Below, piece by piece: positions 4,501-63,122 of a stretch of 64,000 nucleotides of DNA (the stretch's first letter is position 1; the number at the start of each line of letters is the position of its first letter). The stretch is from Octopus vulgaris (lineage: Eukaryota). Below the pieces are notes generated by a model that had not been told where the DNA came from, searched no databases, and saw nothing but the letters and a program-made list of their open reading frames with translations. The position numbers and the translations under genes are program-made. The stretch is taken from the NCBI GenBank assembly GCA_951406725.2, contig OX597814.1, positions 215,946,001 to 216,010,000 of the forward strand, read 5' to 3'.

Positions 4501-4903
4501 ACACGAGCGTATTCAAAGTTATTATCAATACATATGCTGTCATTGATGATACCATCCCAACAATGTATGAAAAGAGCTTCTTACAAGATGTTGCTGATCA
4601 AAATTTTGCCAAATATGATGTCCCATACGAGAAAGACAAAAGCAATTTTGAAAGGAATGATGGTAGCTATAAACAAGACAAAAGATCTCAGTTCCACTGT
4701 TGGGTTGTTTTATCGTCCATTGAACCAGTCTGACAAATATCTCCCTGTATTCTCCTTGCCATACACCGATGAAGCTGACAAAGCTCTGACTATGAGTACA
4801 TATATATATATCAGTTTGCGCCATGCCTACCCCAAAAAGCCCCCCCCCACCACCACTTTAAATCTGCCTAAATGTATAAATGCCAAAACTATTCTTGTCA
4901 CCT

Positions 4904-4954
4904 AGCTTCCTGATGATTTCTTTTGAATGAAACAGTTCTAGTCCTGTAGCAGCT
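4904..4954 (+). ncRNA. Type I hammerhead ribozyme motif (inverted copy of 1941-1991)
   Basis: AGCUUC-CUGAUGA-...-GAAA-CAG...CUG-UA-GCAGCU, with one mismatch in stem I. Confidence 0.65.
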
Positions 4955-5024
4955 CCTTCTATAAAATAAATATATATATATATGTATTTTATATATATAT
5001 ATGTATTTTATATATATATATATG

Positions 5025-14000: not shown

Positions 14001-14243
14001 TATACAAATCCTATTGCTTCCCAGCCACATGGTTCTGGGTTCAGTCCCACTGCATGGCATCTTGAGCAAGTGTCTTCTACTATAGCTTTGGGCCAACCAA
14101 AGCCTTGTGAGTGGATTTGGTATGCAGAAACTGAAAGAAGCCCATCATGTATATACATACATACATACATACCTTCCTACCTATCTACCTACCTACATAC
14201 ATACATACATACATAAATATCTATATCTGTAAATATAAATATA

Positions 14244-14592
14244 TGTCAATTATTCGGTAGCCATGATAAAAGTTTCAGATGTTGGGGCGGAAACCCATTC
14301 GAGCATCTCTTCAGTTATCCGGCCATTGAAAAAATGCTATGAAAATGACCGTTAAACGAAGGGAAATTACTCTGTGATTGACCGTTATTAAGACAAAAGA
14401 GCTATTACTTAGCAGTCATTCTAATAGCTCTTTTCTCTTAATAACGGTCAATCACAAAGTAATTTCACTTTGTTTAACGGTCATTTTCATAGCATATTTT
14501 TCGATGGCCCAATAACTGAAGAGATGCCAGCTTGGGTTTCTGCCCGAACATCTGAAACTCAGAGTTTTATCATGGCTACCGAATAATTGACA
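14244..14592. repeat. Imperfect inverted repeat (~165-bp arms, short spacer), PLE-derived
   Basis: TGTCAATTATTCGGTAGCCATGATAAAA ... TTTTATCATGGCTACCGAATAATTGACA, with inner arms AAAAGAGCTATTA/TAATAGCTCTTTT. Confidence 0.85.
14512..14570 (+). ncRNA. Hammerhead ribozyme motif (slightly degenerate)
   Basis: AUAA-CUGAAGA-GAUG...CAUCU-GAAA-CUCAGAG-UU-UUAU. Confidence 0.6.
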
Positions 14593-14943
14593 CATAAATT
14601 CCTCTATTTACATAATATCAAGGTCTCTTTCATTCTTTTGTTGTCTTACCATTTCTATCAAGATATATATATATATATATGTATATGTATATATATCTAA
14701 GTATGTTTTCTGTCTGTGTTTGTACACCCACCATCACCTGACAACTGATGTTGGTGTGTTTATGTCCCCAAAACTTAGCAGATCAACAAAAGAGACCAAT
14801 AGAATAAGTACAAAAATTTCTTTGACTAAAGGTGGTGCTCCAGCATGGTCATAGTCAAATGATTGAAAGGTGTAAAAGAACAAAAGAATAATAGAAAATT
14901 CAAGAAATCTTTTTCAGAACAAATCAAACTTGAAGAAACTTAC

Positions 14944-21599: not shown

Positions 21600-22779
21600 A
21601 TATGCACCAAATGTATACTATGGACGCATAAGAGGTGCAGCAGTGTCAAAGGAAAGCTAACTTGGAAAATAGTTTTTGTATGTGGCAGATGATCAGGAGC
21701 AATAAGCACTAAAAATGTGCAGAGACCAACCTCTGCCACATTCCAGGGAGAAAAACTAGAAATAGTTGATAGCTTCCGTTACCTAGGTGACCAAGTCAGT
21801 AGTGGGGGCAGGTGTGCTGAAAGTGTAACTGCTAGAGTAAGAATAGCTTGGGCAAAGTTCAGAGAGCTCTTACCTCTGCTGGTGACAAAAGGCCTCTCGC
21901 TCAGAGTAAAAGGCAGACTGTATGATGCATGTGTTCGAATAGCCATGCTACATGGCAGTGAAACATAGGCCATGACTGCTGAGGATATGCGTAAGCTCGC
22001 AAGAAATGAAGCCAGTATGCTCCGATGGATGTCTAATGTCAGTGTTCATACTCGACAGAGTGTAAGTACCTTGAGAGAAAAGTTGGGCCTAAGAAGCATC
22101 AGTTGTGGTGTGCAAGAGAGACATTTGCGCTGGTATGGTCATGTGACGAGAATGGATGAAGATAGTTGTGTGAAAAAGTGCCACATCCTAGCGGTGAGGG
22201 AACCTGTGGAAGAGGTAGACTCAGGAAAACCTGGGACGAGGTGGTTAAGCACAACCTTCGAACTTTAGGTCTCACTGAGGAAATGACTAGAGGCCGAGAC
22301 CTATGGAAGTATGCTGTGCGTGAGAAGACCCAGCAGGACTATTGAGACCATAACCCATGGTCTTTACCTGGGATCAAAACTCTACTTGTGAAGACATGTT
22401 GAGGCAAGTGAGAGATCAGAATCAAAATCGAAAGCGATCAACATCAATGGGAATTGTAGCTGTGATACCAGTGCCAGGGGCACATAAGAGATCTATCTGA
22501 ATGTGGCCATTGCCAGCCTGGCCTGGCCTCCGTGCCGGTGGCACGTAAAAAGCACCATCCGATCATGGCCGTTTGCCAGCCTCGTCTGGCACCTGTGTCG
22601 GTGGCACGTAAAAAGCACCCACTACACTCATGGAGTGGTTGGCGTTAGGAAGGGCATCTAGGTGTAGAAACATTGCCAGATCAAGATTGGAGACTGGTGC
22701 AGCCTTCTGGCTTCCCAGACCCCAGTTGAACCGTCCAACCCATGCTAGCATGGAAAGCAGATGCTAAACGATGATGATG
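21600..22779 (+). mobile_element. 5'-truncated RTE-like LINE (RT thumb region plus 3' UTR)
   Basis: EIVDSFRYLG...RIAWAKFREL...KGRLYDACVRIAMLHGSET*...LRWYGHVTRM, with a (GAT)n tail. Confidence 0.9.
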
Positions 22780-24057
22780 AATATAGGGGAATACAGTTCT
22801 GTCAAAAACTCCTGTTTTCAAAATTTTGATTTTCCCCCCACCTCTGCCCCAATTTCTTAATTTTAAATTTGTTTTTAAATATTGTTTTTTTTTCAATTCA
22901 TTGTGTTTTTCTTTAAGAAACACACCATGCCCCTTCCCCCACCTCACCCACCCATCACCTCCCTGCTTTCAAAAAACTAAAAACTCAGAATGTTTCACTT
23001 TCGTCTGATGTTTCCCACATGCATAGAATTCTACTGAAATAGCAGACGTCAAAAATATCAGACCACCACCAGGAATCCCAACGTGCTAGAAACAACAGCT
23101 AAACGACATTATTTCTAGAAAAACTTCCCTGCTTTCAAAAAAGCTAACAGTAAAACATTCGGAAGTGATGGGTGCAGGTTGGGGGAGGGAATTTGAGTTT
23201 CTTTAAGAAAAACTGAAAATAAAAAATTTGTAAAGGTACGTAATCTCTATTTTTCTATGTGGCTTTAAAAAAAATAACTTTGAAAAAAAGTTAAAAATTC
23301 AAAATTGGGGTGGTGGTTAAGGTTATCAACATTTTGAAAACGTATTTTGCAGACAAAATCCTAATCTCCTCTATGGAAGACAGGAACCCAAAGAATTTCT
23401 GGTAAAAAATAATGAGGGGAAGATAAAGTTTCTAAATACACTCATCACAAATACAAATTGCAACATAAAAAAAAACAGGAAATTTCAATTAAAGTTGAGC
23501 TGTAATTTTATAAGTCATACTGAAATTTTACAAAATTCCATTTATTAAATCTACAAAAATTTATTTATTTGAGCAGTTCAATAAATAATTTTTTCCAAAA
23601 CATTATTTCCAAATTCATTAGAAGATAATTAAAGAAAAAAAAAACTATCAATAAAACAAAAAAGATTTGACCTTTATTTGTAGCTATTCCGAAAGACCAT
23701 CTTCTCCTTTTTCAAGAGTCGCATGTCTAAGTGAAAATGAGTGGAGCCCTTTCAATGACAAACATTAAGCAGACGCAATGTTACAAGAAAAAAATTGATT
23801 TCAATTGGAGTTGAACTGCTTTTTTCTCCCTTTCAACATCAAATTTACACATCTATGTCAATTTTAATCCTTTCTACTGTAAACACAAGGCCTGAAAATC
23901 TGGGGGAGAGGATGAGTTGAGTACATTCTCCACAGTACTCAACTGGTACTTATTTTATCGACCCCGAAAGGATGGAAAGGCAAAGTTGACCTTGATGGAA
24001 TTTGACCGCAGAATGTAAAGACTAAAGATATATATATATATATAGATGTGTGTGTAT

Positions 24058-27000
24058 CAGTGGCGTGCGTTGACTCCCGGCGTTGGGCATGCAATTAATT
24101 TCATTGCCCCCCCTTCCGGCAATTTTTCAGTAAAGCATTTTCGTATCCCTACGATTTACATATAAGAGATTCTGAATATGCAGAATAAACAGGGAATAAA
24201 AAATGGCTGTGCAGAGATGATCCTGAAATAAGTGTATTGTTTGTATTATTCTTTGCTCTTCGAAACGTCAGTACTTTCCCATCCTCATTCTCCCTTAGAA
24301 AAGTCTAAAAATCATAAGTGAAATGTAATGAAGATGAAATTGGATTCTGTCAATATTTTTGCATATTCAAAATCTCTGTTAAAGGTAGGAATCCGAAAAA
24401 ATTTTTCACATAAATTCGTTTTTCAAAGGGGTGCGATTCTGCATTAGCCTCTATACCTATCGGTTGAGCTGAATGAAATGATTTAATTAAAAGAACACAT
24501 TTAGTTACATTATATGGCCATGGTTTTAGATCGTTACTCTCTCGAAGACAAGTCAGGTGCTTTATCATGCTACTTGTCAATTCCGGGAAAATTATTGACT
24601 GTTCTGAGACTTACTGAACATTAAAGGACTACGTGTCACGCACACACATTGAAAATACACGCATATACATGAATGCGCACACAATGAAAGATAGAGAAAA
24701 TTCAACATTGTAAAAAGCCTCCCAAAACTGTTGTGGCAGAAGTCAACATCTCTGAGATTGAAACAAGACACTTATTGAAAGTGAAACAAAACACTTATTT
24801 ACGGCCGTAAATAGACTACACCCAGCAGCACAGAAAGGGAAATCTATGTAGGTTAGGTTTCACGAAGAAATCAAAACATTTCTCCTGCGAAACAATACTG
24901 ATGTAAGAAGGTCGAACCTTACGTTATAACAAACACTAAGCAAAACCTGTAATATATGCTCTTTAATATATTATTTTTTTTAATGTTTTAAAATGTTACT
25001 AAGCTCATTTATAAATTAATTCAATTCTTCGATCTTTCTGGGCAAATATATCTATCACATTTTCATAGAAATCTTCTCTTTTCATCAATTCTTGTAATAA
25101 ATCTTTTTCAATTGACATTAGTGCTAACCCAGACAGTCTTCTTTCTCCTGTCGCATTTCTTTGGTATGTTTTAATTCTACTTAATGCAGAAAATGATCGC
25201 TCTATAGACGGAATTGTCAAAATCAACTTGCACAGATTGAAGAGTTCTGGCATAGCTTCAACAAGATCAGTGCTGTTAATGTAACTCATTAAATGACTTA
25301 CACTTGGTTTTTTAAAATCTTTCATTGAATACATCACATTGAGCTCACTTTGTAATCGTATTACATCAAAAAATCTGCCATAAGTTGTTCTTAAAGAATC
25401 TAAAGAGTCCACAGGAAATTGTTTGCAATACTCATCAACTTTGTTGAAATTCAAAAGTTCCATGAATTTAAACTCTTCTAAGGATGAATATCGTGCTTTT
25501 ATTTGGTCAACTATTGTACTTATAATTTTGTTATAAAGCGTTCTATAATGTCGTTGGGGATCAATAGATATATTCTTGGATCTCTGAATTCCGATTCCTG
25601 CATCGACTCCATATTTTTCCCCTAACCTATCATAAAAGACTGAAAAATTATCAAGTTTGTTTTCGAGTACAGTTCTAGTTTTATCTATTTGATCTTTACA
25701 ATACACTATGTCATGACTTTTACTCTGGAGTATGTTAAATAAGATATCAGTAAAAGAAAAAATGTCACTGAATACCTCTAACAAAAATAAGAAATCAGGA
25801 GCTTTTAAAGTGTGTAAGAATCCAATTGCTGAATTTATGGTGGTATCATCCCATGCTTCAGGATTTTCAATGATGTGTTCAAAAAGGCTGATTATGAAAT
25901 TATAATTTTCCTTTGTGGTAATAATAAGATGTGAGGAGTAATTCCATCTAGTTGCTGTTGCTTTCAGAAATCTTTTTTTAACAATGTTATCTAATGCATT
26001 AGCCCTTTTCGGTGATTTCGTAAAAAATGTACCGAGTCCGTTTATTGTAGCAAAAAATATCTTGCATTCTTTCATAGCAGAGCATGATTGTGAAAGAACT
26101 AAATTTAGGATATGGGCACAACAATGAATAAAGATCGCACATTCATATTTCTTACTTTTGCCTGTAACCCATTTAGTTGTCCTGCCATTGTAGCGGCACC
26201 ATCATATGTCTGCGCAATCAATTTGTTTCCACATTCCCACGTCTCAATGCATTTAAAAACATGTTCAGATAAAGCATTTGCAGATCGATCTGCACTAACA
26301 TCACTAAAACCGATAAATCGTTCTTTCGTCACACAGTCTTCTGTAACATAACGTAAAACTGTTGACAGTTGTGAAGATGCTGAGACATCAGATGTCTCAT
26401 CAACAAGAATAGAAACAAACTTAGCTTGGTCAATTTCCTTCTGCATCTCATTCAACATAATTTTATGAATTGCTTCAATCAAGTCATTTTGAATTCTGTT
26501 CGACAGACCAGTGAAGATAGAAGCTGTATCTAAATGACTTTCCATTTGTTTGTCATATTTACTGAACAAATAAACGAGTTCTTTATAATTTCCCCGATTA
26601 TTAGAGCCTTCAGATTCAAAATGACCCCGAAACGATAATTCCTGGTGGCCTAAAAAAATAACAACATCAATCAATCGTTGCAGAATGGATCTGTTTCGTC
26701 GAACTTTCTCATTATGCTGTTGTATGCTTTGATTTTTACGTGCATCTAATTGTAAGTCTATGCGAACATTCCCGAATATTTTAAGGTCTATCAAACATTT
26801 TATTTGCCTTTGAGAACGCTCGTGCTTTAGCATAGCCATATGTAAATTATTTAAATCATCATAGCCTTTATCATTCCAAACGTTTTTTTCTAAGCCAAAA
26901 AGTAAACACGGCCAACAGAATAATTTATTAAGAGCAACACTTCCAGTTAACCATTTCTTCTTTTCATATGAATTAACCTGAAATTGTTTCGTGAATTTCT

Positions 27001-27837
27001 TGTTGTAGCTTCGCAAATTAGGTAAATTCAGTGTTGGTCTCCCACGATTTATAATTAATTTTTTCCCATCGAAGTCCCTTTTAGAAAAACTAGTTCTCAA
27101 AATATCGTTTATAACACACATTTCAGTCATTTTGAAAAAGGCTGCTCTTATTTAAGGACCCACGTGGAAGCGCCGGCGTAAATTTTAAGTCAATTTCAAC
27201 AAAACGGAAAAATACCCTTTGTTAAATTAATTTAAGATTAATTAGCTATTTCTGAAATAAGAAATATAATATAGATATTTTTGCTTTCAAAACTTTCTAA
27301 AAATATGATAGTGCTAACGGATGTTTTGGATAAAAGATTTCAAACTTACATGCGAAGGCTATTCCAACATTTCAGCTGGCTAACTCTAGAATTATGGGAC
27401 AGCTCTTGTTCCAGTCAAAATAGCCAGAGAGGCGTGATATGCGGTCTTAGCACAGCATGACACGCCAAACTGAATTTGTTGAATCACTGAGAGAGAAGGG
27501 GGTGACCATTTCTCCTAGCATATCTTTTAAACAAGTCACTAAGAGAGAGAGGAAGAAGGGACAAACTACCAAAGACAGAGAGAAGGGGGTCTCATGCGAT
27601 CTTCCCAACGCATGACAAGCGATAAATTTATCGAGTCACTAAAATAGAGAGAGAGAGGAAGGAAGGACAAACTAATACAGACAGAGAGGGAGTGTGTATC
27701 ATGCGATCTTCTAAAAGCATTTATCAAAGCAGATGTACGAAGGGGAGACAATATTTCTAAAACAACTGGACGTATTTTCTTTGAAACAAAGAAGGCATGC
27801 AGCGCATACCTTGCATTGCTGAGAGTGCACGCCCCTG
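24058..27837 (-). mobile_element. Full-length hAT DNA transposon (3780 bp)
   Basis: TIRs CAGTGGCGTGC / GCACGCCCCTG. Perfect 8-bp TSD GTGTGTAT at 24050-24057 and 27838-27845. Internal transposase. Confidence 0.93.
25005..27130 (-). pseudogene. Frameshifted hAT transposase (TTF-type Zn finger, DUF4371, hAT dimerisation; ZMYM1-like)
   Basis: Split ORFs 26105-27130 and 25005-26075. The frameshift near 26150 lies just upstream of the canonical KYECAIFIHCCAHILNL motif. Confidence 0.9.
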
Positions 27838-28590
27838 GTGTGTATGTATATATGTGTGTGTGTATATATATATATATGCATATCTAAAAATCATTAAATT
27901 CAAAGATAAAAACAAATTAATTAATAAAAGATCTGAATTTAAACCATCTTGTATGCATAAATTAACTAAAACCTTCAAACATTATAAGGCTTAAAGTTCA
28001 TAATCCTTAATTCTCCACTGTAATACCTTCATAGTCATTTACAACATAGTTATCTCCAGCATTTCTCAATTATTTTTTCCATATAATCTCTGCTTCTGTA
28101 CTTTGATGTTGTGATTTTTCTTATTTAATGTATCTCTCTCACCTTTATTATTTTTCTTATGATTTTTCTCTAATTTTTCCTTTCCTATTTCTTGCCTATG
28201 TTCTCCTAATTTCCTTTTTCTTATTATATTTTCTTTTTTCCTATCTTTTTCCTATCCTTTCTGGGATTTTTCTGATTTTACTTTGTTGGTGGGAGGGGGC
28301 ACAAAAGGACGAAGACAAGAGAGAGGGGGGAAAGAAAGGAAAAAATAAAGAAAGAGGGAAAGAAAGAAAGAAAGGAAGAAAAGAAAGAAAGAAGGAAAGA
28401 GAGAAAGAAAACATGTAAACAAAAACCCATGTATCATGTTACGGCCTTCTAACGCCGCACCCAAGAAATCAAAATGAAAGCAATAAAATTAAGATTGAAA
28501 ACGAATCATTGTAAAAAGATGATGTAACATGTAAATATATTTCTGTAATCAACAAACATTACAGAGTAACCTTTTACTAAAGCGGCTTCA

Positions 28591-29759
28591 ATGTATACTA
28601 TGGACGCATAAGAGTTGCTGCAGTGTCAAAGGAAAGCTAACTTGGAAAATAGTTTTTGTATGTGGCAGATGATCAGGAGCAATAAGCACTAAAAATGTGC
28701 AGAGACCAACCTCTGCCACATTCCAGGGAGAAAAACTAGAAATAGTTGATAGCTTCCGTTACCTAGGTGACCAAGTCAGTAGTGGGGGCAGGTGTGCTGA
28801 AAGTGTAACTGCTAGAGTAAGAATAGCTTGGGCAAAGTTCAGAGAGCTCTTACCTCTGCTGGTGACAAAAGGCCTCTCGCTCAGAGTAAAAGGCAGACTG
28901 TATGATGCATGTGTTCGAATAGCCATGCTACATGGCAGTGAAACATAGGCCATGACTGCTGAGGATATGCGTAAGCTCGCAAGAAATGAAGCCAGTATGC
29001 TCCGATGGATGTCTAATGTCAGTGTTCATACTCGACAGAGTGTAAGTACCTTGAGAGAAAAGTTGGGCCTAAGAAGCATCAGTTGTGGTGTGCAAGAGAG
29101 ACATTTGCGCTGGTATGGTCATGTGACGAGAATGGATGAAGATAGTTGTGTGAAAAAGTGCCACATCCTAGCGGTGAGGGAACCTGTGGAAGAGGTAGAC
29201 TCAGGAAAACCTGGGACGAGGTGGTTAAGCACAACCTTCGAACTTTAGGTCTCACTGAGGAAATGACTAGAGGCCGAGACCTATGGAAGTATGCTGTGCG
29301 TGAGAAGACCCAGCAGGACTATTGAGACCATAACCCATGGTCTTTACCTGGGATCAAAACTCTACTTGTGAAGACCTGTTGAGGCAAGTGAGAGATCAGA
29401 ATCAAAATCGAAAGCGATCAACATCAATGGGAATTGTAGCTGTGATACCAGTGCCAGGGGCACATAAGAGATCTATCTGAATGTGGCCATTGCCAGCCTG
29501 GCCTGGCCTCCGTGCCGGTGGCACGTAAAAAGCACCATCCGATCATGGCCGTTTGCCAGCCTCGTCTGGCACCTGTGTCGGTGGCACGTAAAAAGCACCC
29601 ACTACACTCATGGAGTGGTTGGCGTTAGGAAGGGCATCTAGGTGTAGAAACATTGCCAGATCAAGATTGGAGACTGGTGCAGCCTTCTGGCTTCCCAGAC
29701 CCCAGTTGAACCGTCCAACCCATGCTAGCATGGAAAGCAGATGCTAAACGATGATGATG
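28591..29759 (+). mobile_element. Duplicate of the RTE-like LINE fragment at 21611-22779
   Basis: Near-identical sequence and identical ORF translations. Confidence 0.9.
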
Positions 29760-29886
29760 AATATAGGGGAATACAGTTCTGTCAAAAACTCCTGTTTTCA
29801 AAATTTTGATTTTCCCCCCACCTCTGCCCCAATTTCTTAATTTTAAATTTGTTTTTAAATATTGTTTTTTTTTCAATTCATTGTGT

Positions 29887-32800
29887 GTCAACATCTCTGA
29901 GATTGAAACAAGACACTTATTGAAAGTGAAACAAAACACTTATTTACGGCCGTAAATAGACTACACCCAGCAGCACAGAAAGGGAAATCTATGTAGGTTA
30001 GGTTTCACGAAGAAATCAAAACATTTCTCCTGCGAAACAATACTGATGTAAGAAGGTCGAACCTTACGTTATAACAAACACTAAGCAAAACCTGTAATAT
30101 ATGCTCTTTAATATATTATTTTTTTTAATGTTTTAAAATGTTACTAAGCTCATTTATAAATTAATTCAATTCTTCGATCTTTCTGGGCAAATATATCTAT
30201 CACATTTTCATAGAAATCTTCTCTTTTCATCAATTCTTGTAATAAATCTTTTTCAATTGACATTAGTGCTAACCCAGACAGTCTTCTTTCTCCTGTCGCA
30301 TTTCTTTGGTATGTTTTAATTCTACTTAATGCAGAAAATGATCGCTCTATAGACGGAATTGTCAAAATCAACTTGCACAGATTGAAGAGTTCTGGCATAG
30401 CTTCAACAAGATCAGTGCTGTTAATGTAACTCATTAAATGACTTACACTTGGTTTTTTAAAATCTTTCATTGAATACATCACATTGAGCTCACTTTGTAA
30501 TCGTATTACATCAAAAAATCTGCCATAAGTTGTTCTTAAAGAATCTAAAGAGTCCACAGGAAATTGTTTGCAATACTCATCAACTTTGTTGAAATTCAAA
30601 AGTTCCATGAATTTAAACTCTTCTAAGGATGAATATCGTGCTTTTATTTGGTCAACTATTGTACTTATAATTTTGTTATAAAACGTTCTATAATGTCGTT
30701 GGGGATCAATAGATATATTCTTGGATCTCTGAATTCCGATTCCTGCATCGACTCCATATTTTTCCCCTAACCTATCATAAAAGACTGAAAAATTATCAAG
30801 TTTGTTTTCGAGTACAGTTCTAGTTTTATCTATTTGCTGTTTACAATACACTATGTCATGACTTTTACTCTGGAGTATGTTAAATAAAATATCAGTAAAA
30901 GAAAAAATGTCACTGAATACCTCTAACAAAAATAAGAAATCAGGAGCTTTTAAAGTGTGTAAGAATCCAATTGCTGAATTTATGGTGGTATCATCCCATG
31001 CTTCAGGATTTTCAATGATGTGTTCAAAAAGGCTGATTATGAAATTATAATTTTCCTTTGTGGTAATAATAAGATGTGAGGAGTAATTCCATCTAGTTGC
31101 TGTTGCTTTCAGAAATCTTTTTTTAACAATGTTATCTAATGCATTAGCCCTTTTCGGTGATTTCGTAAAAAATGTACCGAGTCCGTTTATTGTAGCAAAA
31201 AATATCTTGCATTCTTTCATAGCAGAGCATGATTGTGAAAGAACTAAATTTAGGATATGGGCACAACAATATAAAGATCGCACATTCATATTTCTTACTT
31301 TTGCCTGTAACCCATTTAGTTGTCCTGCCATTGTAGCGGCACCATCATATGTCTGCGCAATCAATTTGTTTCCACATTCCCACGTCTCAATGCATTTAAA
31401 AACATGTTCAGATAAAGCATTTGCAGATCGATCTGCACTAACATCACTAAAACCGATAAATCGTTCTTTCGTCACACAGTCTTCTGTAACATAACGTAAA
31501 ACTGTTGACAGTTGTGAAGATGCTGAGACATCAGATGTCTCATCAACAAGAATAGAAACAAACTTAGCTTGGTCAATTTCCTTCTGCATCTCATTCAACA
31601 TAATTTTATGAATTGCTTCAATCAAGTCATTTTGAATTCTGTTCGACAGACCAGTGAAGATAGAAGCTGTATCTAAATGACTTTCCATTTGTTTGTCATA
31701 TTTACTGAACAAATAAACAAGTTCTTTATAATTTCCCCGATTATTAGAGCCTTCAGATTCAAAATGACCCCGAAACGATAATTCCTGGTGGCCTAAAAAA
31801 ATAACAACATCAATCAATCGTTGCAGAATGGATCTGTTTCGTCGAACTTTCTCATTATGCTGTTGTATGCTTTGATTTTTACGTGCATCTAATTGTAAGT
31901 CTATGCGAACATTCCCGAATATTTTAAGGTCTATCAAACATTTTATATGCCTTTGAGAACGCTCGTGCTTTAGCATAGCCATATGTAAATTATTTAAATC
32001 ATCATAGCCTTTATCATTCCAAACATTTTTTTCTAAGCCAAAAAGTAAACACGGCCAACAGAATAATTTATTAAGAGCAACACTTCCAGTTAACCATTTC
32101 TTCTTTTCATATGAATTAACCTGAAATTGTTTCGTGAATTTCTTGTTGTAGCTTCGCAAATTAGGTAAATTCGGTGTTGGTCTCCCACGATTTATAATTA
32201 ATTTTTTCCCATCGAAGTCCCTTTTAGAAAAACTAGTTCTCAAAATATCGTTTATAACACACATTTCACTCATTTTGAAAAAGGCTGCTCTTATTTAAGG
32301 ACCCACATGGAAGCGCCGGCGTAAATTTTAAGTCAATTTCAACAAAACGGAAAAATACCCTTTGTTAAATTAATTTAAGATTAATTAGCTATTTCTGAAA
32401 TAAGAAATATAATATAGATATTTTTGCTTTCAAAACTTTCTAAAAATATGATAGTGCTAACGGATGTTTTGGATAAAAGATTTCAAACTTACATGCGAAG
32501 GCTATTCCAACATTTCAGCTGGCTAACTCTAGAATTATGGGACAGCTCTTGTTCCAGTCAAAATAGCCAGAGAGGCGTGATATGCGGTCTTAGCACAGCA
32601 TGACACGCCAAACTGAATTTGTTGAATCACTGAGAGAGAAGGGGGTGACCATTTCTCCTAGCATATCTTTTAAACAAGTCACTAAGAGAGAGAGGAAGAA
32701 GGGACAAACTACCAAAGACAGAGAGAAGGGGGTCTCATGCGATCTTCCCAACGCATGACAAGCGATAAATTTATCGAGTCACTAAAATAGAGAGAGAGAG

Positions 32801-32980
32801 GAAGGAAGGACAAACTAATACAGACAGAGAGGGAGTGTGTATCATGCGATCTTCTAAAAACATTTATCAAAGCAGATGTACGAAGGGGAGACAATATTTC
32901 TAAAACAACTGGACGTATTTTCTTTGAAACAAAGAAGGCATGCAGCGCATACCTTGCATTGCTGAGAGTGCACGCCCCTG
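29887..32980 (-). mobile_element. Second hAT copy lacking its 3' end and TIR
   Basis: Corresponds to 24742-27837. Only the TIR ending at 32980 remains. Confidence 0.9.
30150..32273 (-). CDS. hAT transposase, 707 aa uninterrupted ORF (ZMYM1/DUF4371-like)
   Basis: LFCWPCLLF...KHERSQRH Zn finger, FRGH, DETSD, YDGA, CCAH, TRW and ERSFSAL motifs all in one frame. Confidence 0.88.
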   Translation of the reverse strand: MSEMCVINDILRTSFSKRDFDGKKLIINRGRPTPNLPNLRSYNKKFTKQFQVNSYEKKKWLTGSVALNKLFCWPCLLFGLEKNVWNDKGYDDLNNLHMAMLKHERSQRHIKCLIDLKIFGNVRIDLQLDARKNQSIQQHNEKVRRNRSILQRLIDVVIFLGHQELSFRGHFESEGSNNRGNYKELVYLFSKYDKQMESHLDTASIFTGLSNRIQNDLIEAIHKIMLNEMQKEIDQAKFVSILVDETSDVSASSQLSTVLRYVTEDCVTKERFIGFSDVSADRSANALSEHVFKCIETWECGNKLIAQTYDGAATMAGQLNGLQAKVRNMNVRSLYCCAHILNLVLSQSCSAMKECKIFFATINGLGTFFTKSPKRANALDNIVKKRFLKATATRWNYSSHLIITTKENYNFIISLFEHIIENPEAWDDTTINSAIGFLHTLKAPDFLFLLEVFSDIFSFTDILFNILQSKSHDIVYCKQQIDKTRTVLENKLDNFSVFYDRLGEKYGVDAGIGIQRSKNISIDPQRHYRTFYNKIISTIVDQIKARYSSLEEFKFMELLNFNKVDEYCKQFPVDSLDSLRTTYGRFFDVIRLQSELNVMYSMKDFKKPSVSHLMSYINSTDLVEAMPELFNLCKLILTIPSIERSFSALSRIKTYQRNATGERRLSGLALMSIEKDLLQELMKREDFYENVIDIFAQKDRRIELIYK

Positions 32981-33877
32981 GTGTGTATGTATATATGTGT
33001 GTGTGTATATATATATATATGCATATCTAAAAATCATTAAATTCAAAGATAAAAACAAATTAATTAATAAAAGATCTGAATTTAAACCATCTTGTATGCA
33101 TAAATTAACTAAAACCTTCAAACATTATAAGGCTTAAAGTTCATAATCCTTAATTCTCCACTGTAATACCTTCATAGTCATTTACAACATAGTTATCTCC
33201 AGCATTTCTCAATTATTTTTTCCATATAATCTCTGCTTCTGTACTTTGATGTTGTGATTTTTCTTATTTAATGTATCTCTCTCACCTTTATTATTTTTCT
33301 TATGATTTTTCTCTAATTTTTCCTTTCCTATTTCTTGCCTATGTTCTCCTAATTTCCTTTTTCTTATTATATTTTCTTTTTTCCTATCTTTTTCCTATCC
33401 TTTCTGGGATTTTTCTGATTTTACTTTGTTGGTGGGAGGGGGCACAAAAGGACGAAGACAAGAGAGAGGGGGGGAAAGAAAGGAAAAAATAAAGAAAGAG
33501 GGAAAGAAAGAAAGAAAGGAAGAAAAGAAAGAAAGAAGGGAAAGAGAGAAAGAAAACATGTAAACAAAAACCCATGTATCATGTTACGGCCTTTTAACGC
33601 CGCACCCAAGAAATCAAAATGAAAGCAATAAAATTAAGATTGAAAACGAATCATTGTAAAAAGATGATGTAACATGTAAATATATTTCCGTAATCAACAA
33701 ACATTACAGAGTAACCTTTTACTAAAGCGGCTTCAATTCATAGAAAACCTGTTGGGAAATCTTGGATAAATGATTCCCACGTTTTCACTAAAAACCATAC
33801 AGCATTTCAAACTTTTAATTTGTGCCTCTCGCTCCGCATTTATCAATGTATACAGGTATTGTATATGTCTGTGTGTG

Positions 33878-47078: not shown

Positions 47079-48649
47079 CATCATTTAACGTCCGTTCTCC
47101 ATGCTAGCATGGGTTGGACGGTTCGACCGGGGATCTTGGAAGCCAGAAGGCTGCACCAGGCTCCAGTCTTATCTGGCAGTGTTTCTACAGTTGGATGCCC
47201 TTCCTAACACCAACCACTCCGTGAGTGTAGTGGGTGCTTTTTACGTGCCACCTGCACAGGTGCCAGGCGAGGCTGGCAATGGCCACGGTCGGATTGGTGC
47301 ATTTTACGTGCCACTGGCACGGAAGCCAGTCGAGGTGGCACTGGCATCGGCCACGATTCGGATAGTGCTTTTTACGTACCACCAGTCCAGGGGTCCTGGC
47401 ATCTGCCGGGTGCCAGTCATAGGATTGGTTCAATTTCGATTCCCATTTCGATTTCACTTGCCCCAACAGGTCTTCGCAAGCATGGGTGCCTGTCATCGGA
47501 TGAGGTTCGATATCGACTTTGCTTGCCTCAACAGGTCTTTGTGTGTCCAAGGGAGGAAGGGCATGCATAAGTGGGCTGGACTCACTTGTCCTGCCTGGTC
47601 TTCTCACGCACAGCATATTTCCAAAGGTCTCGGTCACTGGTCATTTCCTCAGTGAGGGCTAAAGTTCAAAGGTCGTGCTTCACCACCTCGTCCCAGGTTT
47701 TCCTGGGTCTACCTCTTCTACGGGTTCCCTCAACTGCTAGGGATTGGCACTTTTGCACACACCTATCCTCATCCATTCTCGCCACATGACCATACCAGCG
47801 CAATCGTCTCTCTTGCACACCACAACTGATGCTTCTTAGGTCCAACATTTCTCTCAAGGTACTAACGCTCTGTCGAGGATGCACACTGACATTACACATC
47901 CATCGGAGCATACTGGCTTCATTCCTTGCGACCTTACGCATGTCCTCAGCAGTCACGGCCCATGTTTCACTGCCATGTAGCATGGCTGTTCGTACACATG
48001 CATCATACAGTCTGCCTTTTACTCCGAGCGAGAGGCCTTTAGTCACCAGCAGAGGTAAGAGCTCCCTGAACTTTGCCCAGGCTATTCTTACTCTAGTAGT
48101 TACACTTTCAGTGCACCCACCCCCACTACTGACTTGGTCACCTAGATAACGGAAGCTATCAACTACTTCTAGTTTTTCCCCCTGGAAAGTGGCGGAAGTT
48201 GTTTTATGCAGATTTTCAGAGTTTATTGCTCCTGAGCATCTTCCACATACAAAAACTATCTTCCCAGTTAGCTTTCCTTTGACATTGCTGCACCTCTTAT
48301 GTGTCCATAGCTTACACTGGGTACATCTTATAGAGTTTCTACCTACACCCTTTCTACAGATTGAGCAGGGCCATCTTCCTGAAGACATTTGTGGTTTGTC
48401 TACCTTCCTACTTATTAGTACTTTGGTTTTAGCTAGGTTGATTCTAAGGCTCCTCGATTCTAATCCCTCCTTCCACACCTGGAACTTCTCCTCCAGTTCT
48501 GATAGTGACTCACCAATTAGAGCAAGATCGTCAGCATAGAGGAGCTCCCAGGGGCAACCTGTCTTGAATTCCTCCGTAATTGCCTGGAGGCCTATGATAA
48601 ATAGGAGGGGGCTGAGGACTGAACCCTGGTGGACCCCTACCTCTACTTT
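47079..48649 (-). mobile_element. 5'-truncated RTE-like LINE with a PHD-like insertion after the RT core; coding part uninterrupted
   Basis: GVHQGSVLSPLLF, LLYADD, INLAKTK, CSIC..CTQC..H..C..CGRC, FRYLG, RRGRPRKTW, with a (GAT)n tail. Confidence 0.92.
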
Positions 48650-49322
48650 ATATATATATATATATAATAGCGAGAATAATATGTTAATGGAAAGTAAGAA
48701 ACCTATCAACCCCAAATTAAAGAAAGGTGCTAAAATATTCAAACCAAAGAACAATACACTATGAAGATGTAGAATCACAATCACCAGTCCTCTACCAAAC
48801 CAGTCAATTACATTAACAATAATAAAAACGATCAAAGTCAAAATAATAGCAAGAGCTAACTAATATTGATAAGCAAACTAAATTACTAAGTTCAACGATT
48901 CTGATTTTAAAAAGATCAGCATCTAATTAATCAACTCAATCGATTTCATTCATGAAAATACAATCAAAACTTTGAAAAAGTACAAATACACTCAAATCCA
49001 TTATATACACTCGTTATATTAATATCCATGTATAAAATCTATAGATTTAATATATCACACGATAAAAAGTTAAACATAAACATTATATTAAAATAAAAAC
49101 TAGTTTATTTAAAGAAAGTACTATTTAATGAAAATATTATCTAATTATAATAAGAAATAAAGTCTAACCATTATAAATTCTCAAATTAAATGGTATGTAA
49201 AACATAAAATCTTTTATAACAATTAAACATCGGACGTAAAAAATACCATCAAGAAACTATGAATAAATAAAAATATTACATTATTCATTTTGAATTGTTA
49301 AAAGGTGGGTTTTTTTCTAATA

Positions 49323-49364
<42 letters not shown>

Positions 49365-49545
49365 ATAAATATTAGGGAATAAATCCAAATTTACAGGGAA
49401 AAATCAGATTTAGGATTGAATCCAATTTTATAGTAAAATATTATATTATATTAATTAGAGACAAAACCACTATTATGCAAATCAAACAAAGAAAGACTTA
49501 AGCCAATGCATAAAAAATATTATATAAATTAAATATAATTAAAAT

Positions 49546-49599
49546 AACCACTACGATCGTTTCGTGTCAGCACTTCTATGAGACATTCTTCAGGTGGTT
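49546..49599 (-). ncRNA. Type I hammerhead ribozyme
   Basis: Exact reverse complement of 49641-49694. Confidence 0.8.
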
Positions 49600-49640
49600 T
49601 CAAAACCTTTAAAGTTTAAAACTTGCAAAGAAGGTTTTGA

Positions 49641-49694
49641 AACCACCTGAAGAATGTCTCATAGAAGTGCTGACACGAAACGATCGTAGTGGTT
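49641..49694 (+). ncRNA. Type I hammerhead ribozyme
   Basis: AACCAC-CUGAAGA-AUGUC...GACAC-GAAA-CGAUCG-UA-GUGGUU: 6-bp stem I, intact core, palindromic helix III, GUA cleavage triplet. Confidence 0.8.
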
Positions 49695-49788
49695 ATTTTA
49701 ATTATATTTAATTTATATAAAATTTTTTATGTATTGGCTTAAGTCTTTCTTTGTTTGATTTGCATAATAGTGGTTTTGTCTCTAATTA

Positions 49789-49822
<34 letters not shown>

Positions 49823-50359
49823 CTAGCAGAGACACCCACCTAGCATTGCTTGGGATTAAAATGGTATAGATTTTTATTGTTTTATATGTTTTAGTCACAT
49901 GACTCCAGCCATGCTGGTGCACCACCTTAAAGTTGAAGAAATCAACTACAGGATTTATTCTTTGTAAGCCTAGTACTTAGTCTATCAGTGTACTTTGACA
50001 AATAGCTAAGTTATGGGGATATAAGCACAGTAAAATCAGTTGTCAATCAATGGTAGGGGTAGAAACACAGACACACACACATATGCATATATATACAGAC
50101 ACACATATATAAATATATAACAATAATTTAAATCCCTTTCTGTGTGTGTAAAAGATTATAACGGCCGTATTTTTCAACTGATTTTCTCCAAACTGTGAAC
50201 ATATATTACTTATGTTCCAGGTGTGGTGTCAGACTCTTAAAATTCTTCAAATAATGAGTAACGGGCCCCTTGGGGGCAGAAAACATCCATTCCTGGGTTA
50301 TGTTGAGAAGGGACATAACTCTTTGTGAAGTAAGTTTCAGAAATTGATTGTCTCCTTTA

Positions 50360-51546
50360 CAATAGCTCTTAGTTTCAGGGCTGAACCTGGATACCTCCTC
50401 CCAAGATGGTCTTGCTGCTTCCTGCTGCAGCCACTCTACCACTGGCCATAAATCGGCATCTTCCGTATGTCCCCTCTGTACTTCTCCAGTTGATACATAA
50501 CCAGTCACTGTAGTATGTTTGCTCTTTGTACTTTGCACTTTTCTTCCTGCACAATGCTTGCAGTCCAATTCACAAGGATGACGACTCAAACTGTCCGTAT
50601 CACCATGTACCTGCCCCGGACGGTGCTGAACCTCATAGTTGTGTTGGTCCAGTTTTCCTAGCCGGCATGTTAATTGTCCCTCCGGGTTCTGTAGTGTCTT
50701 CAGCCACTTGAGTGCTGCATGGTCCGTTCTGATGGTAAAGTGCGAACAGTACAGGTGCGGATGGAAAAAGTTGATGCTCCTCATCACCGCCAAAAGCTCC
50801 TCACGGGTTACACAGTAGTTCCGCTCAGGTGGGCTAAGCTTTTTACTGTGATACGCCACCACATATTCCTTGTCGCCCTTCCTCTGTAGCTTGTGTAACG
50901 GTGCAGCCAACGTCGCAAAGTTTCCTATGAGGCACCTATAATAGGTGCCCAGTCCTAAGAGACTTCTCAATTCCTTTGCACCAGTAGGAACCAGCCAATC
51001 CTTCACTGCTACTTTACTTAGCACTCTATGCCCCACATAGCATCTCACTGTACCGTCTCCATTCTGTACGACAACAATGACTGACGACCAGGGACTGCTT
51101 GGCCTTTTCACTACTCCCTTCATTTCCCGCCGCTGCACTGGGACCATCCTCCGAGCTCGCTGCTTCATTGAGCGATGGCCACCTGGGTCGATATAGTGCT
51201 CCACCAGGTCCGTGCGACCAACGTCCAGATGTCCTGCACACCTTGCCAGCAGCTGCTTCATCCACAACACCCGAGTGCCATCCAAGAACCAGCGACTCAG
51301 TGTGAACCGCTCCTGAAACTGCACAGATAGACCACCACCTCCTTCAACTGCCCTCCTATAGTGACGCAACTGACCCTGCCACTGGTCCACTGCCTGGCAC
51401 AGTCCCATGATTTGACCTCTAAAAACCGCTTGTGCCACTTCCAAGAAATTGGCTGACCCAACCAGCGCTTTATCAGCTCCTGCCTCTACCAGGGTCCGTC
51501 CGACCCTCACTCGAGCTTTCACCGTGCACTGCCTGTCGGGCTCCAC
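50360..51546 (-). mobile_element. Internally deleted Ty3/gypsy pol relic
   Basis: SSPWSS, ELRSLLGLGTYYR, VVAYHSKKLSPPERNYCVTREELLAV, TDHAALKWL and HRPG..H..DSLSR motifs. The YxDD core is absent. Confidence 0.85.
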
Positions 51547-52345
51547 ATAAGTGCTACTGGTAACGTGGAATCCAGTACAACATGTTGCATGGTTGGGTTG
51601 TTGGTGACTAAATCAGCACCCCACCAGGCTACCCTGGTGACAAGGGTTCCCAGAAACCTAGCAGGTTTGAAAACAAGACCTGTTGAAAGGTTGGATGAAT
51701 CTAGTGCAGGCTAAACAGCTATCGAGCATATGAAGTAAAAATATTGGTGAAAAGGATAAATAAATAAAGATTGATATATCTATTAAAAATCATATTAGAT
51801 TTAAGGTTTACAAAACGTTGAATTAAGGATTAAAAGTTGTAAGATACATTGGCAGTAGTGAGAAATCCTAATGATGGATTTAAAAGTTTAGAGGAGTTCT
51901 AAAGAAATCTTTATAGAAAGTTATAACATCAATATGAAGCAATTCGATGGTTGTTTCTGGAGTGCATTAGTGAACAGGTATGGATCTTTTGGTGTCACAC
52001 TGACAATGTCTCCTCCGTCAGGAATAAGTAAATAGGTAATTAATTATGTTTGAAGACATGTAAGAGGAGAGAAAAGAAAACTTTAGTTTACATTACGTTA
52101 GGCGCCGGCTACTCTATCAGATACTGAACACTTTTACAATGACTCATGTTTATACATGAAAGGAGATATCTAGTGTAGAATGTTGGGGAAATTCTTTTTA
52201 AAAAATGAGAAGAAGCAGGGCTGTGGAATACTTCATTTCTTATATTTCATGGTATAGAGTTTCATGAAACATGAGTGAAATTTATATATATTTTATTTTT
52301 ATATTTTATTTCTATTTTTTTTTCTTCTACCTTCTTGTGTATATG

Positions 52346-52387
<42 letters not shown>

Positions 52388-52453
52388 GGTCCCGGGTTGA
52401 GTCGGGGTTAACCACAGTAAATAAGGTACTCAATACATAGCAGAGTAAATTAA

Positions 52454-52581
52454 TTTATTTTATAGAAGGAGCTTCTACAGGACTAGAACTGTTTCATTCA
52501 AAAGAAATCATCAGGAAGCTCTGATGATTTCTTTTGAATGAAACAGTTCTAGTCCTGTAGAAGCTCCTTCTATAAAATAAA
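52454..52581. ncRNA. Back-to-back hammerhead motifs in a 61-bp-arm inverted repeat (minus copy 52470-52520 intact, plus copy with broken stem I)
   Basis: Minus: AGCUUC-CUGAUGA-...-GAAA-CAG..CUG-UA-GAAGCU. 6-bp spacer GAAGCT. Confidence 0.75.
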
Positions 52582-59842: not shown

Positions 59843-60111
59843 TCAATGATTAGAGAATGTAATCAAATAATTAGGATATGCCTGAGAGTCATGGAAAATA
59901 ACATAAATATCGGGTCTTTGAATATTATCAACAGCAGAATTGTAAGAATCCTGTAAAACTTTTAGTCCGTGGTATCCTTGCATCACTCTTCCCACAAGAA
60001 CACTGCATTTGTATATTCTCTTTATTCCGTGACGGTCAGGAGTAGAATAGGTATCATTTGCAGAATATCGGATGTCTCCGGCAAAATAAACACCTTCACC
60101 ATATGCTGTGG
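59843..60111 (-). CDS. Last coding exon of a PARP14/15/10-like mono-ADP-ribosyltransferase
   Basis: Acceptor TCTTCTTAG. Encodes (A)TAYGEGVYFAGDIRYSANDTYSTPDRHGIKRIYKCSVLVGRVMQGYHGLKVLQDSYNSAVDNIQRPDIYVIFHDSQAYPNYLITFSNH*. Missed by the ORF track. Confidence 0.95.
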
Positions 60112-60153
60112 CTAAGAAGAGAAAAAAAGATATATATGTGTGTGTGATGATGA

Positions 60154-60194
<41 letters not shown>

Positions 60195-60343
60195 ATTTCA
60201 TTTCTTAGGGAATAAAAATTCTGGCATAACAGGGGTTCAAATTATTCTCAATGAGGAAATATATATTTTCATTTAGAGATAGTAGGCCCTTCACCTCACC
60301 ATATAAAAGAATTTTAATTTAAATACTTACTACTTTATAACTT

Positions 60344-61728: not shown

Positions 61729-61770
<42 letters not shown>

Positions 61771-61851
61771 ATGTAGGGGAAAATTTTTTCGAAAAAAAAA
61801 AAACCTCATCAGTGGCCAGCATATTAAAAAATACCTTTAAAGGTTAAATTT

Positions 61852-62122
61852 ATCAACAACTTATAAATAAGGGTAAACGAAAAAATTTCTAATGCCAAAT
61901 ATGCCGAAGTTGGACATATTGTCCATAACCGTATAATTTTTTCACAATACACACGCTACTCGAAAAAAGGTCGACAGAAATTTCTAAAAAATTCCATTAC
62001 TACCATATTGGACCGATTTCAGGGTTAGTTCATAAGAACCCTCCCTACGTCAGTGATTTATCCAACTTCGGCATATTTGGCATTAGAAATTTTTCGTTTG
62101 CCCTTATTTATAAGTTGTTGAT
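61852..62122. repeat. Inverted repeat (~62-bp arms) enclosing a degenerate hammerhead (62003-62055, minus strand)
   Basis: ATCAACAACTTATAAATAAGGG...GAAGTTGGA / TCCAACTTC...CCCTTATTTATAAGTTGTTGAT. Minus strand CUGACGU..AGGGUU..AACCCU-GAAA. Confidence 0.75.
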
Positions 62123-63122
62123 ATGTATATATATATGTATGTATGTATGTATGTACGTACGAACGTACAGCAATCGATAACAATAACAATAGAGATTTTA
62201 GATGTCCAAACAGGGTTATTTCTCCCCATTTATGTACCCAGCAATGTCAACAGAAACTTCCAGAATGAGTTCCATGTCAGTTGACAGATGTGTGTCATTG
62301 AAACTCTGCAAGCATTTAATAGTTCCAAACACTTTGTTAGAAAAGATCTATTAAAAGCCTGACCCTTGCCAATATTTACCATTGAACTTGTTTGGGTGGC
62401 ATTTTGTGGAACCCCACTCTTCTACTCACCCCATATCCATATTCACCATACACATCAAAATCTAATTCCAAAAGATGATAAAATAGTTAGTGAGAGAAGA
62501 TCGTTTGAGATATCTAAATGGAGTGACCTCTGTGATGGTACCACTGCTGGTTTATCAGATTTCTATACAGTTATTAAATGTCCCTTAACCAATTTCTAGG
62601 CCGTAGCAGACATTGAATATTTCAATGAGAGTTAACAACACTGTATTGATTATCTCAGTATATCTATAATTGACACACTCAGAATGGTGATTGCTAGGCC
62701 TGGTGTTCGCTTGTTGATATTTCTGTCCAGTCCTGCCGACCTACCACTACACCTAGTCCTTCTTCCCCAAAACATTACCCCTCTGGAATTCTGCCCCTTC
62801 TCTTATCTTTCCTGCAATATTTTCATTTACAAAGGTTCAAGAGGAACATTAATGGATGGGGACAGACCCTTCCTCCCAATCCAAATAAAAGTGTTGGTTC
62901 CACAATAATAAAATACACCTGGTTTACTCTAGAGCAGAAGATGTTAGGAAGGGGACCTGGCAGTAGAAACGATGCCAAACATGGAATGTGTGGGCAACAT
63001 GGCATCCTCTCTGTGTGAGAAAGGATTCTAAACAGCAATCAATGTGGAGAGTGACTGCCCAGCTCAGGACAATAGGAAGGGCGGGTAGATGATGATGATG
63101 ATGTTGATTATAATATACTTAC

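Follow-up and report, generated by a model that had tools for sequence, protein, structure and literature searches.

A most likely dead, protein-less Penelope-like insertion with head-to-head hammerhead motifs in the genome of Octopus vulgaris

The window, i.e. the whole stretch of 64,000 nucleotides of the Octopus vulgaris genome that was analysed (contig OX597814.1, positions 215,946,001 to 216,010,000), is an animal-type region rich in microsatellites and broken mobile elements, including hAT transposase copies, reverse transcriptase (RT) fragments and a GIY-YIG fragment (1-420). Segments 24742-28592 and 29887-33737 are 99.6% alike and each encode a hAT-like transposase, one unbroken (714 aa) and one split, while 21610-22906 and 28590-29886 are 99.8% alike; these near-identical repeats in 21610-33737 represent either a recent duplication or an assembly overlap. 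The only piece of a host gene seen in the window is a C-terminal PARP catalytic-domain exon on the minus strand (59843-60241), and the hairpin described here lies about 10 kb downstream of it. The hairpin is preceded on the left by a broken non-LTR-type RT fragment with a PHD-like finger (47666-48859, minus strand) and followed on the right by a broken LTR-type RT fragment with RNase H (50206-51612, minus strand).

The two arms of the hairpin (49442-49609 and 49631-49798) are 168 nt long each, complementary at 166 of 168 positions (BLAST E 1e-82) and separated by a spacer of 21 nt; the mismatches are at 49508/49732 and 49519/49721. The description given by an earlier, sequence-only reading, 168-bp arms with an identical type I hammerhead on each strand, thus stands. 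Its limits (49442..49798) enclose the hairpin correctly, but fall short on the left: the hairpin belongs to a longer insertion, bounded by a (TA)n tract on either side, with a 74-nt tail that extends the left copy only and reaches about 49368, and four sister hairpins in the window had been missed. The (TA)n tract is flush with the hairpin on the right and 80 nt off on the left, and, since (TA)n is present on both flanks, a target-site duplication is unreadable. The features of the locus are as follows:

49330..49361, no strand: (TA)n tract of the left flank, likely target (from the sequence)
49368..49441, minus: 74-nt tail of the left copy only, with a predicted 11-bp stem-loop (family contigs cover it in all 4 aligned runs; fold prediction)
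about 49368, minus: outer end of the tail, the distal 3' end of the family (loose contig ends)
49442..49609, minus: left arm, a 5'-truncated element end (inverted-repeat alignment)
49546..49599, minus: type I hammerhead motif, minus-strand copy, predicted cut after 49552 (motif scan, fold)
49610..49612, no strand: 3-nt junction, likely untemplated (matches the family continuation of neither side)
49613..49630, plus: 5' stub of the right copy, sense sequence of the family (family contigs)
49631..49798, plus: right arm, tailless, stopping at the proximal 3' end of the family, the mirror of 49442 (alignment, contig ends)
49641..49694, plus: type I hammerhead motif, predicted cut after 49688 (motif scan, Rfam, fold)
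49641-46/49689-94, 49647-53 and 49655-58/49672-75, plus: stem I, CUGAAGA and stem II of this motif (scan, fold)
49659-71, 49677-80 and 49680-87, plus: its loop II, GAAA and helix III palindrome (scan, fold)
49799..49822, no strand: (TA)n tract of the right flank, likely target (from the sequence)

The stub 49613-49630 together with 49631-49640 is predicted to form a 9-bp stem-loop just 5' of the ribozyme. No open reading frame was found in a search of the stump, and no tandem array of the hammerhead unit is present at the locus.

The motif at 49641-49694 on the plus strand is letter-for-letter identical to that at 49546-49599 on the minus strand and is arranged in the order stem I (6 bp), CUGAAGA, stem II, GAAA, CGAUCG, UA and the closing strand of stem I. 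It possesses a complete type I core, i.e. C3 U4 G5 A6 N7 G8 A9, G12 A13 A14, the pair A15.1-U16.1, H17 (A49688) and stems I-III. Helix III had been read as the palindrome CGAUCG; it is indeed palindromic, but that call was too short, since the palindrome, with A15.1 and U16.1 included, has 8 nt (ACGAUCGU). Stem II opens unusually: A49654 (or U49655, if the A is extra) faces C49676, without the usual G10.1-C11.1 pair. This A-C opening arises because an AUG (49654-49656) follows directly 3' of the core; the frame of this AUG stops after 11 codons. At the mirror site 49586 no variant is listed in the family, and the A-C opening is retained.

A relaxed type I scan found five motifs in the window, compared with a mean of 0.075 in 40 Markov shuffles, none of which (0 of 40) gave a match with stem I of at least 6 and stem III of at least 2. 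The Rfam model Hammerhead_1 (RF00163), which the sequence-only reading had pointed to, aligns to 49641-49694 over its whole length with 22.6 bits (E 8e-4), a score below the gathering cut-off of 34 and obtained only when the search was narrowed post hoc to 81 nt; Hammerhead_1 was not reported for 2.3 kb or for the whole window, where no model gave a gathering-level match. The matches by E-value in the 2.3-kb search (microRNA-type hairpin models and one scaRNA model) were all far under their cut-offs and were rejected. Four viral loci of a pattern scan contain the core letters but no stem I, and were likewise discarded. The core 21-mer had no matches in a metagenome scan, while the 22-mer matches (two metagenome, three prokaryote) extend no further than 22-30 nt and were taken as chance. 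A sigma-70 scan, with a model unsuited to animal DNA, gave chance counts only.

Fold predictions agree with the proposal of the sequence-only reading that helix III would be too weak in a monomer and that the ribozyme would work as a dimer. For the lone motif the predicted probability of the active monomer fold is 0.002, while the minimum of a two-copy cofold is the strand-swapped active dimer (-28.6 versus 2 x -9.5 kcal/mol), and the duplex of the 8-nt palindrome is predicted at -10.0 kcal/mol. The ribozyme of the parent element would thus act as a dimer via this palindrome. At the locus itself the predicted state is different. Whichever strand is read through, transcription reaches the antisense copy ahead of the ribozyme, and the RNA is predicted to form a 168-bp duplex of -279 kcal/mol; to force the ribozyme fold in such hairpin RNA would cost about 93 kcal/mol, with a pair probability for stem I near 1e-62. 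The competition between cleavage and hairpin formation that had been suggested earlier is not supported by these values. The two ribozymes sit on opposite strands, so no dimer can form in cis, and both are predicted to be locked inactive, buried in the 168-bp double strand. By this modelling only RNA initiated at the centre could form the ribozyme, with a stem I probability of 0.6 for the right arm and 0.02 for the left.

Words of 49362-49793 occur in 20 of the 24 public sequencing runs listed, under five organism labels and in ten studies. None of the runs listed as containing words of the stretch is recorded as RNA. Contigs from runs X1, X3, X4 and X11 were aligned to the left half (49362-49630), 6513, 1325 and 2326 from the three large runs, of which one is presumably DNA while the other two have no recorded type, and 41 from the run presumed to be RNA. 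The tail left of the arm is covered as deeply as the end of the arm, and it is therefore assigned to the element. Loose ends carrying (TA)n directly before 49442 were found in at least 33, 12 and 21 contigs of X1, X3 and X4, respectively, and a second loose end before 49368 in at least 19 contigs of X3 and at least one of X11. The family is multi-copy and has two 3' ends (about 49368 and 49442), which bound the tail and both abut (TA)n; its dispersed and mostly 5'-truncated copies lie in AT-rich or (TA)n targets. In X1 the summed depth drops from about 2.5 million close to the 3' end to some 13,000 over the core; depth summed over contigs measures abundance poorly and serves here as a rough guide only, not as a copy number. 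The gradient fits 5' truncation, and part of it stems from subfamilies diverging at 49501.

Judged by the variants listed, the ribozyme core is conserved among genomic copies, as would be expected under the earlier reading. The variants listed within the ribozyme all fall in loop II: two of 16 substitution rows and six indel rows among the best 12 of 16. One loose end has U at the free position N7. Two letters of the left arm, G at 49508 and A at 49519, are private, being absent from about 99% of the family depth, and both arms agree at the mixed family sites 49447, 49502, 49536, 49574 and 49578. The 41 contigs of the run guessed as RNA are family copies, none of which covers the spacer; a T>C site was seen in one of them. 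Depth bins around the cut site 49552 show no step, contig depth being blind to ends. One contig of X11 (record 15, 2446 nt) has 49472-49608 at its end and continues upstream of the ribozyme; this contig may represent either a longer copy of the element or a host transcript that contains an insertion.

The centre of the hairpin differs from those of other loci. In family contigs 49613 is preceded by GTTCAT and 49609 is followed by CTTTGC. The right copy owns the spacer, of which 49613-49630 is sense sequence, and the left copy owns the tail. No contig bridging the junction 49609-49613 was present in the aligned runs (X3 and X4 have zero depth at 49612, and the contig that X1 has there is another locus). 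Five other junctions, found in four of the six rows of a joint table and in one further contig, join the antisense arm, cut elsewhere, to the same sense stub at 49613. In these the antisense arm stops at 49492, 49517, 49542, 49557 or just past 49609, and 49613 is reached through 3-12 letters, ending in TTCAT in four of the five. The other loci are therefore hairpins with different centres, and the hairpin is not mobilised as a whole. At all six junctions the sense copy starts within 12 nt of 49613; this narrow start zone is biased, since the joint table lists gaps of up to 40 letters and the contigs are short, and it hints at a fixed 5' end of the RNA. A weak 5-bp hairpin, of about -3 kcal/mol as DNA, is possible at the centre.

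Besides 49442-49798, the long and closely spaced inverted repeats of the window are 2641-2988, 14228-14612, 52454-52581 and 61851-62123. All five are flanked by microsatellites, at no more than 14 nt on one side and at 51-108 nt on the other, an arrangement found in 2% of random 350-nt segments, and a full hammerhead core is present in three of the five, in three unrelated sequence families. The insertion at 2533-2988 is a near-perfect palindrome of 348 nt without a spacer, with a one-sided extension of 108 nt, between (TA)n tracts; each of its arms (2641-2988) apparently carries only the 3' half of a hammerhead (GAAA-CG...CG-UA). An older hairpin at 14228-14665 has arms of 84% identity, a 51-nt tail and a decayed hammerhead core at 14516 on the plus strand. 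A third hammerhead family (52385-52581, 1856-2083 and 4812-4970) has CUGAUGA, a U-U opening of stem II and a non-palindromic helix III; one of its copies forms a hairpin, with 6 nt of spacer and a tail of 70 nt, and the copy at 4812 is tailless. In the hairpin 52385-52581 tail and spacer are on the same arm, the opposite geometry to that of 49368-49798. Finally, 61768-62123 has inverted arms of 64 nt, a spacer of 146 nt and a one-sided extension of 84 nt between TA tracts; the extension holds a CUGAUGA...GAAA string without clear stems.

At about 787-855, beside (TA)n, there is another occurrence of the 14228 family's 3' end (85% over 69 nt), joined head-to-head to a GIY-YIG endonuclease fragment (1-775). 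The fragment is on the minus strand and contains the linker CxCX5C of Penelope-like elements (PLEs) and one frameshift. A HMMER search with it retrieved 5422 relatives, and the long ones carry DKT (P0090, P0116) and an RT-like YRDDG; no RT was named by Pfam in four long relatives, and two word-index protein searches with the fragment gave no matches. The CxCX5C of the fragment and the DKT of its relatives, as sequence motifs, are marks of Hydra clade PLEs, a clade for which a protein lacking CCHH is a further criterion. The fragment ties the hairpin layout, but not the 49442-49798 family, to an autonomous element; the end of this family showed no convincing likeness to the endonuclease fragment or to any sister family.

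Taken together, 49368-49798 is most likely a dead, protein-less Penelope-like insertion, made of two 5'-truncated, hammerhead-bearing ends placed head-to-head, with a one-sided tail. The origin from a PLE terminal repeat (pLTR) and the inverted arrangement, both suggested by the sequence-only reading, are supported by the layout, the 3' ends of the family and the differing junctions; the Penelope parentage, the two primings and the inactivity at the locus are what we infer from these observations. A GIY-YIG endonuclease encoded by the element would nick both strands of a (TA)n target, and the reverse transcriptase would prime two cDNAs from element RNA at start sites 74 nt apart (49368 and 49442), the left copy with its tail having begun at the distal site and the right copy at the proximal one. 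The template was probably uncleaved RNA, since both copies span the cut site. Both cDNAs would stop after less than 250 nt, and their truncated ends would be joined with three extra letters, so that the mirror image would arise at insertion rather than being mobile as a unit. The ribozyme would be a property of the parent element, dimeric there and buried in duplex at the stump. Against this explanation, a parent ORF with a telomerase-like RT and GIY-YIG was not found for the 49442-49798 family, scans of sequence collections giving chance matches; the G10.1-C11.1 pair is missing, the Rfam score is under its cut-off and no target-site duplication is readable; and the step of two primings is based on one locus, and the sister 52385-52581 also fits a single fold-back.

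A similar layout has been reported for PLEs carrying an endonuclease (EN+). An inverted 5'-truncated pLTR copy with a one-sided tail and a (TA)n bias is drawn for them in PMC8557442, and the complex insertions presented in its Fig. 2 legend and in PMC3846280 share with the present locus the head-to-head truncated copies, the one-sided tail, a microsatellite target and a short palindrome close to the repeat's 5' end. The tails printed there are 30-40 nt long, compared with 74 nt here (51-108 nt in the five hairpins of the window), and the stump 49368-49798 differs in having no ORF between the copies. In metazoan PLEs pairs of hammerheads on opposite strands, 100-700 bp apart, were described in PMC4209133; these pLTR hammerheads share with ours the CUGANGA/GAAA/UH core, a small palindromic helix III, a predicted dimer and the opposite-strand pair. 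They differ in the G10.1-C11.1 pair, termed highly conserved in that work and lacking here, and our motifs have a stem I of 6 bp and cores that are closer (41 nt between motifs). The dimer requirement is reviewed in PMC6765202. For the Hydra clade of C-terminal EN+ PLEs, section 11 of PMC8557442 mentions hammerheads and insertion into (TA)n, both shared, while the CxCX5C fragment of the window belongs with a sister family and not with the 49442-49798 family.

Further parallels come from the Poseidon PAc element of the green anole, the protein of which, predicted to be a dimer, was reported to cut and extend both strands (PMC11167929). According to the same source, two RT start sites define the tail, cleavage is not needed in vitro and the ORF opens where stem II starts. 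Two 3' ends around a tail, an AT-rich target, an AUG where stem II begins and copies that span the cut site, from uncleaved RNA, are common to both elements; in our case the AUG frame is short and the stem-loop of the tail is not AC-rich. Non-LTR retrozymes (bioRxiv 10.64898/2026.07.22.740005) are also protein-less, carry a type I hammerhead and are thought there to originate from PLE pLTRs. They consist of head-to-tail tandem units, whereas 49368-49798 is a single head-to-head pair; an identity as a retrozyme was ruled out by the lack of tandem units.

Whether such insertions arise by twin priming or by self-priming was counted as open in PMC8557442. At the present locus the same Penelope-like origin with a mirror arm made by one cDNA or antisense RNA folding back on itself appears rather unlikely, while deserving serious attention. 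Self-priming has been proposed for head-to-head junction palindromes in PMC3846280, and the weak hairpin at the centre, the geometry of the sister 52385-52581, with tail and spacer on one arm, and the letters that both arms share at mixed family sites, as a single template would give, are in line with it. These shared letters, however, equally fit two RNAs from one master copy, and the three junction letters differ from what fold-back extension would write. The main objection is that a copy cannot outgrow its template strand without a second template, and here the right copy has the spacer and the left copy the tail. Two separately primed cDNAs are favoured, because tail and spacer belong to different arms.

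The long near-perfect inverted arms, the short centre and the TA flanks would also suit a miniature inverted-repeat or fold-back DNA transposon (MITE) that has acquired a hammerhead and inserts into TA as one complete hairpin. We consider this highly improbable, as the ends are asymmetric owing to the tail, the family cover drops steeply from the ends to the centre and unrelated hammerhead families of the window share the layout; the centres that vary in five other loci led us to rule out a MITE identity. There is similarly very little to be expected from the idea that the host maintains the locus to supply double-stranded RNA (siRNA or A-to-I substrate), switched by the ribozyme. Read-through RNA would form the long duplex given above, and siRNAs matching Penelope inverted repeats are reported from Drosophila in PMC3681739, but the locus is near the family majority with two private changes and so looks young, five such hairpins occur in 64 kb, there is no sign of the locus being shared between species, and no switch is expected, the ribozyme fold being predicted to lie energetically far out of reach. 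An assembly or library fold-back artefact, which could be suspected from arms 99% alike and from the lack of an aligned contig across the junction, is the least credible explanation, since the mirror halts exactly at the second natural 3' end of the family and gives way to a different flank, two sites distinguish the arms, a sister hairpin has aged to 84% and like junctions occur in independent runs.

With separately primed cDNAs as the preferred reading, the stumps may tentatively be regarded as a fossil record of PLE integration, in which such cDNAs were joined and one of them extended to a near-fixed 5' end of the RNA, although the reverse has somewhat better odds. There are hints that this end would lie about 30-40 nt 5' of the ribozyme, so that the cDNA would resemble a strong-stop product. 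The layout, the opposite-strand hammerhead pairs and the siRNAs from Penelope inverted repeats are all already in print, and the locus itself is minor, one of many dead insertions. The density of stumps, five hairpins in 64 kb, offers a count-based test of twin priming versus self-priming. If read through, the hairpins would raise the load of double-stranded RNA in the host, as PMC3681739 reports for Penelope in Drosophila. The family also keeps a hammerhead of the dimer type whose stem II opens unusually, with an A-C that coincides with an AUG; this makes it a cheap construct for a cleavage test.
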